Assembly: GCA_965222605.1 (NCBI GenBank) | Contig: OZ244960.1 | Location: 3,360,001 to 3,424,000, forward strand | Direction: 5' to 3' | Length of the DNA: 64,000 nucleotides | From: Candidatus Latescibacterota bacterium | GTDB taxonomy: Bacteria > Latescibacterota > UBA2968 | Shown here: piece by piece, positions 55,360 to 60,181 of the stretch | Numbering within the stretch: the stretch's first letter is position 1 | Layout of the letters: the number at the start of each line of letters is the position of its first letter | Position numbers and translations under genes: made by a program | The notes under the pieces: model-generated | The model's input: only the letters and a program-made list of their open reading frames with translations | What the model was told of the DNA's origin: nothing | Database searches by the model: none

Positions 55360-56853
55360 TCAGAGCACTTCTACTGTCCGTCGCTCCACTTCCTCCTGGT
55401 GGACCTGTCGCAAGCGGTCGCAAATGATGCGTTTTCTGTCTTCGGGGTCTTCTGTCGGGAACTGCATGCCGATGCGGGTGAACAGGGGTTTGTACCCGCG
55501 GGCGTGATTGAGTTGCGTGTCGGTGAGAAATGTTAGCAGCCTGTTGCGGAGACGCTGGGCTGTGTCTGCATGTGCGGACGACTGGGCAAGGTTCTGTATT
55601 TCATGCGGGTCGTTGTGCAGGTCGAACAGGCGTTCATTTTGGGCCTGGATGGACCATTTCCACCGGGCGTCGCGCACCATGTAGCAGAACTGGTCGTTGC
55701 GGGAGATTTCAGAGAAGACGGCATCGTGAACGCGGTCGGTCTCGCCGCTGACGATGGGGAGGAGTGAAACTGCCTGACAGTAGTCCGGGATTTCTGCGCC
55801 CGCCAGATCCAGGAAGGTTGGAAACAGGTCCAGGAAGGAGACCGGTGAGGCGTTGCGGTGTCCAGCAGTGCCGACGGGTGCGGCTGGTCCGCCGATGATG
55901 AGTGGTACGCGCGCCGATCCCTCTTCGAAGCCGGTTTTGGAGACGAGGCCGTGCTCACCCATGCGTTCTCCGTGGTCGGAGATAAATACGATGACGGTGT
56001 TTTCCCAGTTGCCGCGTTTTTTCAGGGCGGCTACGATTTCTCCAACGCGGTCGTCGAGATGGATGATCTTGCCCATGTACTGAGCGGTCATTTCGGCGAT
56101 GGCCTGGCGACCGTATTTGCAGCGTTTCTCGTTGTAGTTCTCTGGCAGGACGACATCGGCCGGATCGTACATTTTGGCGTATTTTCCGGGTGCGTCCAGA
56201 GGTGGATGAGGTCCGGGAAAACTGGCGCAGAGGAATAGGGGTTTGTCGGTGGGCGCGCGATCGAGGTACGCCAGGGTTTGTCGGCAGACATAGCCGTCCG
56301 GAGTCATGTCCGGTGGTAGCGGTGAGGGCCGGGGGGTGTATTGTCCATCTACGTAGCGGTCGCCGATGTCGGTGATAAAGGTGTCGAGGAGTCCCTCTTC
56401 TTTTAGCAGGCGGCTGTAGCCCGTTTTCAGGAAGGGTCCTTGAAATGGCGTTGAGGTTTCTTCAGCCCAGTCCAGGCCGAGTTGGTCGTAATAATCGCGG
56501 TAGTCTTCATAATCCTGACCCCATTCCAGGCTGAAGTAGTGGTATTTCCCGATTTTCGCGGTGGTATAGCCGGATTCTTGCAAGCAGCGGAAGAGTGTGA
56601 CTTGTTCGGGCGGGAATAGCATGCCGGTGTAGTTGCAAAAGAATCCGTGTGCGTGCGGGTAGAGGCCGCTGGCGAGCGATGCGCGCGCCGGCATACATAC
56701 GGGCGATGGCGTATAGGCCGCGTCGAAGATACAGCCGCTGGCTGCAAGCGCATCGAGGTGCGGGGTCTGGACCTGCGGGTGTCCCGCGCACCCCAGATAG
56801 CGCGCGTTCCACTGGTCGGAACAGATGAAGATGATGTCGGGTTGGGTATTCAT
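55360..56853 (-). CDS. Formylglycine-type sulfatase
   Basis: PDIIFICSDQ, CMPAR, GKYH, SDHG. Confidence 0.92.
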   Translation of the reverse strand: MNTQPDIIFICSDQWNARYLGCAGHPQVQTPHLDALAASGCIFDAAYTPSPVCMPARASLASGLYPHAHGFFCNYTGMLFPPEQVTLFRCLQESGYTTAKIGKYHYFSLEWGQDYEDYRDYYDQLGLDWAEETSTPFQGPFLKTGYSRLLKEEGLLDTFITDIGDRYVDGQYTPRPSPLPPDMTPDGYVCRQTLAYLDRAPTDKPLFLCASFPGPHPPLDAPGKYAKMYDPADVVLPENYNEKRCKYGRQAIAEMTAQYMGKIIHLDDRVGEIVAALKKRGNWENTVIVFISDHGERMGEHGLVSKTGFEEGSARVPLIIGGPAAPVGTAGHRNASPVSFLDLFPTFLDLAGAEIPDYCQAVSLLPIVSGETDRVHDAVFSEISRNDQFCYMVRDARWKWSIQAQNERLFDLHNDPHEIQNLAQSSAHADTAQRLRNRLLTFLTDTQLNHARGYKPLFTRIGMQFPTEDPEDRKRIICDRLRQVHQEEVERRTVEVL

Positions 56854-56988
56854 GGGTGCTCCTCTGTTGATCTGGGTTCTTATCATTGGGGCTTATATAT
56901 TTAAATAACAAACGACCAATACACAATTACATTATTCTAATCCCGTTATTTAATAACGGGGTTTTTTTGTAGTTATATCCGAAACACG

Positions 56989-57017
56989 TTGACTTGCCTA
57001 CCAATACCCTTTATCTT
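56989..57017 (+). promoter_or_regulatory. Sigma70 promoter of candidate structured RNA
   Basis: TTGACT-17 nt-TATCTT; predicted +1 near 57024. Confidence 0.6.
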
Positions 57018-57023
57018 TTACAC

Positions 57024-57185
57024 GTCTATTGTCAAGCAAACCCGCTATGTCGGGTAGCTTGCTGAATATAATAGCCTTGTGCTTACATGGGGTAGCTCCC
57101 TATGTACAGGCAAATAGGCAAGATTTCCCGCACATCGTTTGCGCGACAATAGACCTGCCCGGCACTTTTCGGAGCAGGTTATTTT
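57024..57185 (+). ncRNA. Candidate structured small RNA/attenuator
   Basis: 18-bp closing stem (2 mismatches) 57024-57041/57137-57154, nested stems, then hairpin ACCTGC...GCAGGT and T-rich tail. Confidence 0.5.
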
Positions 57186-57293
57186 AATATAAACAGGACT
57201 TACGCAAATCAATAGACAAAAGGGTATTCCATCCTTAAACTTCCCGCATAGGCGCGTAACGTGAACGAGGAGGAGTTTTGATGGACAAACCGA

Positions 57294-57323
57294 CCTGTCT
57301 GCGTGCGTACACGCACAGGCAGG
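57294..57323. repeat. 30-bp hairpin micro-insertion
   Basis: CCTGTCTGCGTGCGTACACGCACAGGCAGG; removal gives MDKPTSLDYCQY. Confidence 0.85.
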
Positions 57324-57379
57324 CCAGCTTGGATTACTGTCAGTATTTGCTCAGCAGTCCGATCAACTATACGCTGACG

Positions 57380-57431
57380 CCTGCCTGCTTGCCTGCGCGT
57401 TGCGCGCAAGCAGGTGCAGATGGCAGACAGG
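57380..57431. repeat. Nested micro-insertions (27-mer at 57388-57414 inside a 25-mer)
   Basis: CCTGCCTG[CTTGCCTGCGCGTTGCGCGCAAGCAGG]TGCAGATGGCAGACAGG; removal gives NYTLTHFADH. Confidence 0.88.
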
Positions 57432-58128
57432 CATTTTGCAGACCACAGCGAAGGCTTCAGCCATGATATGATCAATCGGTATCTGGCCGGAGATCGCATT
57501 GCCCCGCGCTTGGTCTGGGAACATGTCAAGTCGGCTATCGCATTAACGCCAAAGGGCTATGTGATCTTCGATGATACGGTCTTGGACAAACGCCATGCGC
57601 GAAAGATAGGACTTGTTCGTCGTCAATATAGTGGCAATGCCAAAGGGGTCATCAATGGCATCGGCGTGGTCACTTGCGTTTATGTCAATCCCGAACAAGA
57701 CCGGTTTTGGATCATTGACTATCGCATATATGACCCGCAAGGCGATGGCAAGACCAAGTTAGATCACGTCGTTGAGATGCTCTCCTTGTTGGTCTATCAA
57801 AAACACTTGCCTTTTCAGACGGTATTGATGGATAGTTGGTATGCGACCAAAGCTGTGATGCTACACATTGAGAAGTTGCAAAAAATCTATTATTGTCCCC
57901 TCAAGTCCAATCGGCGTGTGGACGATTCTTTAGGGCAATATCCCTATCAGCGAATAGATAGCCTGACTTGGACAGATAGCGAATCTCACGCAGGCAAACA
58001 CATTAAAATCAGAGGCTTTCCCAAAGACCACAAGGTGAAATTATTTCGGGTGGTGTCCTCTACCGGGCACACGGAACATGTCGTGACCAACGACAAGGCT
58101 CAAAAGGATACCCAAGTGGCACAACAGG

Positions 58129-58184
58129 CCTGTCTGCCAGAAGCACAGGCAGGCGTGCCTGCTTGCGCGCCCCGCGCAGGCAAG
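58129..58184. repeat. Two adjacent micro-insertions (25-mer 58129-58153, 27-mer 58158-58184)
   Basis: CCTGTCTGCCAGAAGCACAGGCAGG and CCTGCTTGCGCGCCCCGCGCAGGCAAG; removal gives VAQQACHWRWKIE. Confidence 0.88.
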
Positions 58185-58445
58185 TCACTGGCGCTGGAAA
58201 ATTGAGCAATTCCACCGAGAGGCAAAACAAGTCACAGGGCTTGAAAAATGTCAATGCCGCTTGGCACGCATTGTGCGAAATCACATTGGGTGTGCCTTCC
58301 TCGTTTGGCTACGCCTTGAGCAGGTCGCCTATCAAACACGACAATCCGTTTATCAGGTCAAATACGGCTTGTTGGATGACTATCTCAGACAACAACTCAA
58401 AGATCCCTCTATTCTCATGACCCTTGCGTAAGTCCTAATAAAAAT

Positions 58446-58476
58446 AGCGCGTTGGTTTGTGGAGAACCAACGCGCT
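58446..58476 (-). terminator. Probable intrinsic terminator
   Basis: 12-bp perfect stem AGCGCGTTGGTT/AACCAACGCGCT with T-tract on the minus strand. Confidence 0.55.
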
Positions 58477-58830
58477 GGATCGGGGGTTTTGTTTTTACAC
58501 ATCTCACCAAGGATAGACGGATAATTTTTACCCGTCTCGCAATTTAAAAGCCTCCTATTTTCCAAAAAATAATAAAGTAATATTTTTGCGTCAAGTAAAA
58601 ATTGCTCATGGATAACTACCTTAACTTGTTTGTTTAATGGCAGTTATATTTAAAATAATCTTAACTTAGGAGAATAGTGTGGCTAAATCTTTATACGCAC
58701 AATACTTCGGACATTTTTTAAAAAAGGGATAGACAAAAAAGTGCCGTTCACACAGATTGGATGTCAAAGATTTTCCCAGTCAAAGGGATCTGTAACCCAA
58801 AATTTGAACCAGTTAGCAGGCTAATTCACG

Positions 58831-59732
58831 CTAAGGATCAGTCGTGATATTTCTCATAAGAATTGCCTGCACCACTTCTTGTGGCGTCTGGTAGCTCAGG
58901 GCAGAATGCCGTCGGCCCTGATTGTAATACGTCATTTGCTTGTCTATCACACAGATAAGTTCTGCCAAAGCGTCTGCTTGCATCATCAAAGTTTTGTTTT
59001 CGGTTTTGAAACGTCCCAGAAGGACTCAATCCACGGATTATCTTTTGCTCCGTTCATCGCAAAAGAAATCCCTGCACGTTCTTTGATCAACACACGATGT
59101 AACCAGTCGTATGAGGTATAAACTGAATCGCGGTCATGATGGATGAGGATGTCCGAAAGTCTCCTGTCCAAACAGGCCAAGTTATTTTGCAACTGATCCA
59201 AACAATAAATCGCCAGGGCACGATTGCGATGTGCGCCCACGCCAAAGCCTGCGATCCATCTGGTGTGGATGTCCAAAAAGGCCATTAACCACGCTTTTTT
59301 CTGTCCCTGGCAATAGCGTACTTCGGTAAAGTCGGTGCAAAAGACACACAGCGGATCAACGGTGCGGTTCTGAACTAAATTGGCGTCTTGTCCCACCTCG
59401 CTTATCAGCTTCAATACCGGATTCTTGCCACGTTTTGGCAGATGACGAGGTAAGTCCAACTCATAGGTTGACAAGAGCTTACGCAACCGCTTATGATTGA
59501 CCACGATGCCAGTACGGGCTTTTATATCTTCCTTGATGCGGCGATACCCATAACCAGGATGATGCCGGATCGTGGTTATGATCTCGTCCTTTATCTGCTC
59601 ATCTGATCTCGAACAAGATGCCTGACCGCGACGATAATGAAGCGTCCCTTTGGACAAGCCTAAGGCACGACAGCACATATTCAGACCATACCTGTCTTTA
59701 TGCCTTTCGACCAGTTCTACTTTCTCAGACAC
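58831..59732 (-). pseudogene. IS3 OrfB integrase with 1-bp frameshift near 59015
   Basis: YGYRR, TDFT, HHDR, DNPWIESFW; one more G restores GRFKTEN...YYNQGRRHSALSY. Confidence 0.82.
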
Positions 59733-59734
59733 GT

Positions 59735-60019
59735 TCAGCGGGTGCCTAAAAAATTTTTGAGCAGAGCCAGTTCTACTTCTTTTTGACCCAGCAGGCGCTC
59801 CAGATCAGACACACGCGCTTCATACGTCTTGACGGTATCATTGCCAGAGAAAATCTCGGCACCGCTGTCTATAAACTGACGCTTCCATTTGGATAGACTC
59901 ACGGGATGCACATCGTAAGCACGAGCGACTTCTGCATCCTCTTTGTCCGAGGTCAGTGCCTCTAATACGATCTGGAACTTGAGTTTAGCGGAATAGGACT
60001 TCTTGGATCTCTTCGACAT
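59735..60019 (-). CDS. IS3 OrfA (HTH)
   Basis: YSAKLKFQIV...VARAYDVHP..LSKWK; T TTT TTA slip site at the 3' end leads by -1 shift into the orfB frame. Confidence 0.88.
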   Translation of the reverse strand: MSKRSKKSYSAKLKFQIVLEALTSDKEDAEVARAYDVHPVSLSKWKRQFIDSGAEIFSGNDTVKTYEARVSDLERLLGQKEVELALLKNFLGTR

Positions 60020-60181
60020 GGTATCTCCTCCTGTTAGGTGAGAAAATACCACGCTGATACCCAATGTCAATTAGCCTTTATACCGGGTCAACTTTTGGGG
60101 CGCACCTCAATTTTCCATCTTTGGATCCGTTGGAGTCGTTCATATTTTCAGATTGCCTTCCCAGTTTGCTGCTTATACATC

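Follow-up and report, generated by a model that had tools for sequence, protein, structure and literature searches.

Nested hairpins in an IS701-family transposase gene of a Latescibacterota bacterium: likely members of a family of ultra-small mobile elements

An insertion sequence (IS) of the IS701 family in the genome of a Candidatus Latescibacterota bacterium carries five short hairpins within its transposase gene, and the gene is broken by them. The locus lies in a stretch of 64,000 nucleotides of contig OZ244960.1 (positions 3,360,001 to 3,424,000), hereafter the window; coordinates are window positions unless marked as genome positions, and the 6.34-Mb genome to which the window belongs is denoted G000. 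The locus raises the question of what such inserts are: an artefact, the debris of a larger transposon, a known class of repeat, a weapon against mobile DNA, or mobile DNA in their own right. We consider it likely that they are ultra-small (19–36 nt), non-autonomous palindromic mobile elements, moved in trans and filtered by selection.

The carrier, denoted copy W, was compared with two intact paralogues in G000 (B and C), a truncated sister copy (D), a copy from a genome of the same genus (G002), and copies in contigs from two sponge-metagenome runs (X2 and X3). The features of the locus are listed below, with a caret marking each point of insertion.

57189 to 57193, no strand: left copy of the 5-bp target duplication ATAAA, from the sequence and an empty-target contig
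57194 to 58437, plus strand: IS701-family IS, copy W, 1244 bp, of which 134 nt are hairpin inserts, from its ends and alignment to hairpin-free copies
57281 to 58431, plus strand: transposase frame, which the inserts divide among frames 2, 0 and 1
57294 to 57323, plus strand: hairpin 1, 30 nt, CCTGTCTG...CAGGCAGG, inserted at GA^CC; missing from B, C, G002 and X2/X3
57380 to 57431, minus strand: hairpin 2, outer element, 25 nt (57380–57387 plus 57415–57431), holding the nested inner element
57388 to 57414, minus strand: hairpin 2, inner element, 27 nt, CCTGCTTG...CAGGCAAG on the minus strand; a pattern match, 8 nt from the end of the outer element
58129 to 58153, plus strand: hairpin 3, 25 nt, inserted at CAGG^CGTG; missing from B, C, G002, X2 and X3
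58158 to 58184, plus strand: hairpin 4, 27 nt, CCTGCTTG...CAGGCAAG, inserted at CGTG^TCAC; missing from B, C, G002, X2 and X3
58438 to 58442, no strand: right copy of the target duplication ATAAA, 5 bp, from the sequence and an empty-target contig

An earlier note, made from the letters of the window, had described five hairpins here, and all were found where it placed them (30 nt; 25 nt with a nested 27 nt; 25 nt; 27 nt). The inserts leave the transposase as three open reading frame (ORF) pieces in the ORF list (57278–57466, 57414–58205 and 58261–58431). When the 134 nt were excised in a script, 1019 nt remained, encoding 338 amino acids and a stop with no internal stop, which is the restored transposase that the note had described. 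This product aligned end to end with paralogue B (residues 1–338 versus 23–369, 82.7% identity), and B matched the NCBIfam model for IS701 family transposases (NF049921; 2e-114, 382 bits, cut-off 250) as well as Pfam DDE_5 and DDE_Tnp_1. It is the carrier, not the hairpins, that belongs to IS701: it has a DDE transposase, inverted ends (CAGGACTTACGC and GCGTAAGTCCTA) and a 5-bp target duplication. The inverted ends and the duplication had been claimed from the sequence and are both present; a contig of run X2 shows the unoccupied target, fusing 57188 to 58438 with 5 letters in common.

Hairpin 1 folds as DNA at −9.2 kcal/mol (z −2.8), and its 30-mer recurs in other genomes; hairpin 4 folds at −10.5 kcal/mol and is separated from hairpin 3 by 4 nt. 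The search pattern offered in the earlier note matched four times in the window, always within copy W and nowhere else in the 64 kb, where 100 dinucleotide-preserving shuffles gave an expectation of 0 matches. The outer element of hairpin 2 escapes the pattern because the 27-nt copy interrupts it. A search of 56900–58700 against Rfam, at E up to 1, returned chance-level matches only (PVT1_6, TMV_UPD-PK1).

Comparison of filled with empty sites carries the case for insertion. Paralogues B and C, identical to each other and 76% identical to W, were empty at all four W sites and differed from W by exactly 30, 52 (25 + 27), 25 and 27 nt. Eight IS copies with identical match length and score were present in G002; the one that was aligned was 89.5% identical to W over 1106 positions, with all four sites empty. 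The copies in X2 and X3 had 31 and 35 other letters over ~1110 nt (~97% identical), and their contigs jumped 30, 52 and 52 nt precisely at the W insert sites. No base was duplicated or lost on either side of any W site. A look for empty sites in other IS701 copies had been suggested as a check, and B, C, the aligned G002 copy and the X2/X3 contigs all provided them at the exact positions. Two further claims of the note hold on this evidence: that the hairpins are younger than the IS and are its only frame-breaking lesions, and that they arrived without duplication or deletion, encode nothing, and hence were moved in trans.

Site 2 was found in three states: empty (B, C and G002), with the outer element alone (D), and with both outer and inner elements (W). 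Copy D also carries hairpin 1 (30/30 identical). It is a mosaic, with a B-like patch at 57530–57579, that over most segments is as close to W as G002 is, or closer; the best reading is therefore that hairpin 1 and the outer hairpin 2 were inherited and that the inner element came later. Copy W thus appears, from this comparison of copies, to have been hit in at least two rounds. Exact insertion was not confined to this IS. A 30-nt copy was present in one of nine aligned paralogous left ends of TnpB elements, a 25-mer lay within another small repeat at genome position 233185, and a host hairpin that was empty in one phage (G170) held a 24-mer in its loop in another (G168).

Library or assembly errors can create palindromes, but an origin of that kind has practically no chance of explaining these. 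The filled locus recurred in contigs of two further studies, X15 (whole stretch) and X19 (to 58350), with 1 other letter and 0 gaps, and is therefore not an artefact of one assembly; this evidence consists of assembled contigs, and the runs possibly came from the same kind of source material. The same sequences occurred in most of the related genomes (33 of 41) as well as in records of phages and metagenomes, and the inserts obey both a target rule and a length filter within genes, described below.

The target rule is simple. Of 156 distinct instances, 140 had a purine just before the insert (−1) and 140 a pyrimidine just after it (+1), the two being complementary in 102; A was rare at −2 and T at +2. 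An independent viral and metagenome set (n = 124) gave 105 purines and 107 pyrimidines, 91 of the latter C. Clean empty sites show these flanking bases already in place, and they therefore belong to the target and not to the element: the hairpins are inserted exactly between a purine and a pyrimidine (R^Y), with neither duplication nor loss of bases. Hairpins themselves serve as targets. At one locus of a related genome, G029, a nest was four deep, with every guest directly after the eighth base of its host, and clusters of 3–9 copies within 1–3 kb were found in the same genome. Hairpins land in and beside each other, and clusters and nests therefore grow.

Beyond the window, the family is defined by a conserved 8 nt at each end (CCTGYYTG...CARGCARG) and a total length of 19–36 nt. 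All 90 distinct variants among the collected loci, themselves 19–36 nt long, retained the 8-nt arms while their loops varied freely; in the shortest form the arms enclose three bases and nothing else. In many variants the fold has an outer and an inner stem separated by a two-base irregularity; the inner stems differ among subfamilies yet remain self-complementary. Identical centres recurred at many unrelated sites and in different genomes. At an orthologous site 3′ of a pfkB-family kinase gene, filled in two genomes of one genus (L099 in G015 and L109 in G009, position 1501), the variants differed (25 versus 27 nt), which suggests that the centre of an inherited copy changed in place.

The strict pattern matched 10 times in the 6.34 Mb of G000: four times in W, twice in D, once in the left-end region of a TnpB element (IS605-family), once in a second small repeat upstream of another TnpB, once in an intergenic spacer, and once, at genome position 1411530, as a poor hairpin that is probably a chance match. 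The note's observation that the rest of the 64 kb lacks the motif thus stands; in the whole genome the motif is rare without being confined to this IS. Repeated DNA (≥200 bp, ≥75% identity) makes up 11.2% of G000 (712 kb) and includes ~20 diverged TnpB (OrfB_IS605 / Cas12f1-like_TNB) elements with conserved left-end hairpins. Over the 41 related Latescibacterota genomes, of which 33 had matches, strict matches numbered 0–137 per genome, where perfectly symmetric copies count on both strands and the reversed control pattern gave 0–2 per strand. The oriented form was present in 37 of 168 genomes of the phylum, with 0 control matches; it was concentrated in two families of one order and uneven within genera (41 oriented matches in G001 versus 0–6 in 20 congeners). 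Records of the IS relatives are titled as Latescibacterota or Latescibacteria metagenome-assembled genomes. Less specific searches did not recover the family: an exact 14-mer survey for short dispersed repeats found neither of the two small-repeat families, because loops and inner stems vary, and a generic hairpin scan gave 562 centres, mostly terminator-like, with no dominant family. A loose regular expression with a lazy gap missed 30-mers and was discarded.

The second small dispersed repeat of G000 is ~27–28 nt long, with a consensus near GAGCGGTGTACAACTGCG(MY)AGCAGTTCAT and 45 matches at ≤3 mismatches on its 19-nt core (e.g. genome positions 3723865–3723883, 3012204–3012222, 1414183, 4988995 and 233209 of G000:C1). 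It forms a clean 27-nt in-frame insertion (9 aa) in B and C, is missing from W, D and all relatives, and is also inserted in two of nine aligned TnpB left ends. In three genomes (G000, G017 and G001) CCTG hairpins have repeatedly landed at the GTA^CAAC step of this repeat.

Where do copies persist? In G029, all 100 oriented copies (~72 loci) were classed by the Pfam and NCBIfam matches of the flanking ORFs. Thirty-two lay in or within ~1 kb of transposase ORFs of several families (IS982, IS5, DDE_Tnp_4 (2), HTH_32/IS1595, rve, UPF0236 (2), DUF772, DDE_5 (2) and DDE_Tnp_1 (3)), and ~6 loci lay within a repeat resembling a miniature inverted-repeat transposable element (MITE). The remainder were in spacers, beside ORFs without a family match, or inside ordinary genes. 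Among the genes that contained a copy and kept an open frame were those for a thiamine pyrophosphate enzyme, a xanthine dehydrogenase, AcrB (acrB), UvrA (uvrA), HsdS (hsdS), a Cas4-Cas1 fusion (cas4-cas1), an fn3/LRR protein, an FG-GAP protein and a HATPase_c_4 protein; two symmetric-type copies lay in the linker of a sigma-54 activator of G029, and one copy lay in an ABC transporter of G006. Where a copy lay unambiguously inside a non-transposase ORF that has a Pfam domain, its length was 27, 30, 33 or 36 nt (13 of 13); among the 100 oriented G029 copies, in contrast, 26 have lengths that are not multiples of three. If length were irrelevant, the chance of 13 in 13 would be ~0.02. The earlier suggestion that hairpins survive only in dispensable DNA was thus close to the mark and too narrow, in that copies persist within proteins at lengths divisible by three. 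As a separate observation on G029, a 33-nt composite hairpin (L232, G029:C1:4036400-4038100, at 846–878) lies ~1.1 kb from a dnaA match (4035624–4036112), possibly in the origin region.

Mobile DNA also carries hairpins along with it. In G029, two copies of a DDE_Tnp_4 IS share three hairpins with unchanged spacing, and a ~330-nt MITE of G028, with ends CAGYCCGTTGAAAAAGTC, held 3–4 hairpins (nested) in four of four aligned copies (L167–L170, e.g. L167:330-660). The flanks of one MITE site recurred around the commonest 27-mer of G040 (L083) and a 28-mer of G032 (L087), with different loops at that one site; much of the apparent burst in those two genomes is therefore probably the MITE. No copy of the G028 MITE was found in G000. 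Repeated hits in one lineage, nesting, and carriage by larger vehicles are all shown by these data.

Phages are carriers as well. The subfamily CCTGTCTGCGTGC + 1–9 bases + GCACAGGCAGG turned up in IMG/VR contigs (35 stretches) and in metagenomes (at least 123 stretches); local GC of the metagenome loci ranged from 32 to 73%, and 87 of 115 loci had no 100-nt similarity to another. The viral carrier contigs have genes for terminase, portal, capsid, tail-tube and endolysin, and a number of 27-nt copies are in frame within ORFs for capsid, terminase and portal. The densest carriers were three related small phages:

phage G168 (L409 and L410), 27,037 bp: 16 copies, rated complete (CheckV 100%)
second phage, 24,712 bp: 7 copies, direct terminal repeats
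third phage, 11-kb fragment: 7 copies

Density in the small phages was 0.3–0.6 copies per kb, as compared with a maximum of 0.026 per kb in G029, and two of the phages were syntenic with different sites filled. A search of the G168 proteins against PHROGs matched excisionase, methyltransferases, head and head-protease, portal, terminase and endolysin; it detected no transposase or HUH protein, and most proteins matched nothing. G168 and G170 (L411 and L412) look temperate and carry one hairpin per 2–4 kb. Many phage hairpins sit at gene boundaries directly 3′ of large genes, where they could be terminators or RNA-stabilizing hairpins.

Such a distribution might suggest that a host- or element-encoded system aims hairpins at mobile DNA (IS, MITE or phage) and thereby inactivates it, as the earlier note had envisaged. 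Most G029 clusters do lie in or beside transposase genes of many families, the small phages are far denser than G029, and the 1.1-kb IS in the window holds 5 copies as against ~4 in the other 6.3 Mb of G000. However, roughly two thirds of the G029 copies are outside mobile DNA, in spacers or in frame in ordinary genes, and the target is merely R^Y. Hairpins are missing from over 100 other copies of this IS701 family (B, C, the eight in G002, more in G016 and G010, and 75 other loci), and a scan of the longer IS701 matches L036, L054 and L079 found none. Hairpin-bearing IS copies still multiplied, and hairpin-rich phages look complete. Enrichment can arise from missing selection, nesting and hitch-hiking, and these can explain the excess in IS copies and phages, though a genuine preference for mobile or heavily replicating DNA may also contribute. 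Targeting of this IS, or of IS elements in general, is not supported, given the 32 in 100 count and the populated phages, and an anti-transposon system is, in our view, unlikely.

A different origin would be that the hairpins are excision scars, the fused terminal inverted repeats of a larger transposon with CCTGYYTG ends. Conserved termini around variable centres are what would remain if only the ends of a parent were kept, and ~30% of the 13-nt left arms have no exact right arm within 9 nt. Six such solo arms examined in G026 were, however, all interrupted (five nests and one truncated arm), and none of them ends a long, ORF-bearing element; no long parent was found in ~250 loci inspected. 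The same centres occur at many unrelated sites and in different genomes, and the self-complementary inner stems are not expected of random scar junctions. We judge this origin improbable, somewhat more so than directed inactivation.

Short, dispersed, imperfect palindromes with a conserved stem irregularity and no target duplication also recall the repetitive extragenic palindromes (REPs) and REPINs, which are moved by RAYT, the REP-associated Y1 HUH transposase, through single-strand chemistry; REPs are extragenic, and a GTAG head and a position on the flanks of the RAYT gene are among their defining features (PMC3333891). The hairpins share the many dispersed copies, the irregular stem and the lack of a target duplication but differ from REPs on all four points compared. 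There is no GTAG-type head: all copies start with CCTG or CTTG and have variable flanks. The RAYT-like gene of G000 is flanked by another repeat, GTAGGGGCGAGGCATGCCTCGCCC, and none of the 10 strict matches is near any of the three Y1 hits in that genome. Counts of Y1 (PF01797) do not track hairpin counts across 41 genomes (G040, 77 hairpins versus 0 Y1 hits, where in ~100 contigs a Y1 gene could be unassembled; G021, 0 versus 75; G029, 137 versus 2). Copies lie inside genes, including transposase genes and, in frame, ordinary genes; strand bias is also weak. The link to HUH/RAYT enzymes that had been suggested in the note does not survive these comparisons, and an identity with REPs is very improbable.

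The RAYT-like gene is of interest in itself. This Y1 ORF (G000:C1:3942096-3942653, 185 aa) has the GTAG-headed REP GTAGGGGCGAGGCATGCCTCGCCC on both flanks, as repeats GTAGGGGCGA(G/C)GCATG..TCGCCC, and the REP has 22 pattern matches in G000 and 43 at ≤4 mismatches. To judge by sequence, ORF and repeat together resemble a canonical REP-RAYT pair, here in a member of the Latescibacterota.

We return to the reading of the hairpins as trans-mobilized elements and to how they might move. Mobilization has to be in trans because a hairpin cannot encode anything. An activity encoded elsewhere would copy or move the hairpins and place them between a purine and a pyrimidine. The enzyme may recognize the 8-nt arms together with a hairpin of fixed irregularity; the conservation of the hairpin and its fixed asymmetry suggest single-stranded DNA, folded as a hairpin, as the recognized form, and such a hairpin may be joined into a nick or break at R^Y. 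Judging from the distribution, selection would then purge hairpins that break needed genes, and the survivors would be those in intergenic DNA, those of lengths divisible by three in tolerant parts of proteins, and those of any length or number in dead or dispensable mobile DNA. Hairpins inside an IS, MITE or phage would travel as the vehicle multiplies or moves between genomes, as observed for an IS and a MITE. Copy W would be one such vehicle, colonized and inactivated.

Several observations weigh against this reading, or against parts of it. No mobilizing gene was found, and mobility is read from patterns of presence and absence. In the genomes richest in hairpins, hitch-hiking accounts for a large part of the copies, and the rate of autonomous insertion may therefore be low. 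G000 itself holds only ~8 independent insertions, 5 of them in one 1.1-kb IS. Given 11.2% repeated DNA in G000, those 5 copies exceed what neutral survival predicts; the excess needs either self-attraction, for which there is a pattern and not a mechanism, or an earlier period in which this IS lineage resided in a host with active hairpins. For the only non-IS copy in G000, in a spacer at genome position 5260185, the relatives have no hairpin, but their spacers have diverged too far for the empty site to be defined. For the single-strand step in particular, the bias toward the lagging-strand template in G029 was only 60 of 100 relative to dnaA, a count in which clusters are not independent, and both strands fold about equally well.

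A more ambitious version would hold that the hairpins are a new cross-lineage class and the smallest mobile DNA (a 'nano-transposon'), moved by a type of enzyme not yet linked to transposition that joins a single-stranded hairpin at R^Y without duplication, and with a real preference, beyond what relaxed selection gives, for mobile DNA that is replicating or transposing, against which they would act as a weapon or on which they would live as a parasite of parasites. We regard that version as doubtful.

Among described systems, the closest analogue is the small dispersed repeats (SDR) of cyanobacteria, reportedly described by Elhai et al. in 2008. According to three papers that cite that work, SDR of heterocyst-forming cyanobacteria are precise insertions of ~20–30 nt whose mobilizing mechanism is unknown (PMC4390886, PMC3116915, PMC2884548), and the target of one of them, SDR5, lies within HIP1 (PMC4390886). 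The hairpins are likewise dispersed, precise insertions of ~20–30 nt in otherwise conserved sequence, and some SDR form hairpins. Measured against what those papers report, the hairpins differ in belonging to another host phylum and occurring also in metagenome and phage contigs, in having a bare R^Y target rather than HIP1, and in being 19–36 nt built around fixed 8-nt arms, with a sequence that probably differs. They are also deeply nested and concentrated in IS, MITE and small phage genomes.

Other comparisons are less close. Like the hairpins, MITEs are non-autonomous, bounded by inverted repeats, moved in trans, and able to nest or sit in other mobile elements; they are, however, 5–10 times larger, usually duplicate their target and derive from a recognizable parent IS, whereas the hairpins showed no duplication and no parent was found in the loci inspected. 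Rickettsia palindromic elements are in-frame palindromic repeats inside genes that stay open, but they are ~100–150 bp long and restricted to Rickettsia and relatives, whereas the hairpins are 19–36 nt and occur across unrelated sequence contexts. The HUH elements (IS200/IS605, IS91 and Helitron, the last inserting between A and T) also leave no target duplication and use hairpins as recognition signals; they need a specific, one-sided target of 4–5 nt or a strong strand bias, in contrast to the symmetric R^Y and the 60 in 100 seen here. A full-text search of open-access papers and preprints for the 13-nt arm CCTGTCTGCGTGC hit no paper, and searches of open-access papers and preprints for Latescibacteria palindromes or nested, short palindromic mobile repeats returned nothing describing the family.

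The neighbours of copy W are mentioned for completeness. A neighbouring IS3-like element (58831–60070, minus strand; orfA 59735–60070, orfB 58986–59732) also looks broken, the last ~52 aa of its integrase being in a separate ORF (58831–58989), with no hairpin involved. Just upstream of the IS, across an AT-rich spacer, is a 508-aa ORF (55360–56886, minus strand) that is sulfatase-like judging by its translation only.

To our knowledge, the cyanobacterial SDR are the only published precedent for mobile DNA this small. The hairpins would add a second, unrelated family of tiny elements, with richer material to work on: exact filled and empty sites, nests in three states, a target rule, a selection filter within genes, and hitch-hiking on IS, MITE and phage. 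Their numbers range from none to more than 100 matches among the genomes of one genus, and the search for the enzyme is therefore a tractable comparative problem; phages with one copy per 2–4 kb offer compact experimental systems. The inserts break or lengthen genes, and annotation pipelines will misread them as frameshifts, pseudogenes or odd low-complexity peptides. The same inserts can be used to trace lineage and horizontal transfer on a fine scale.

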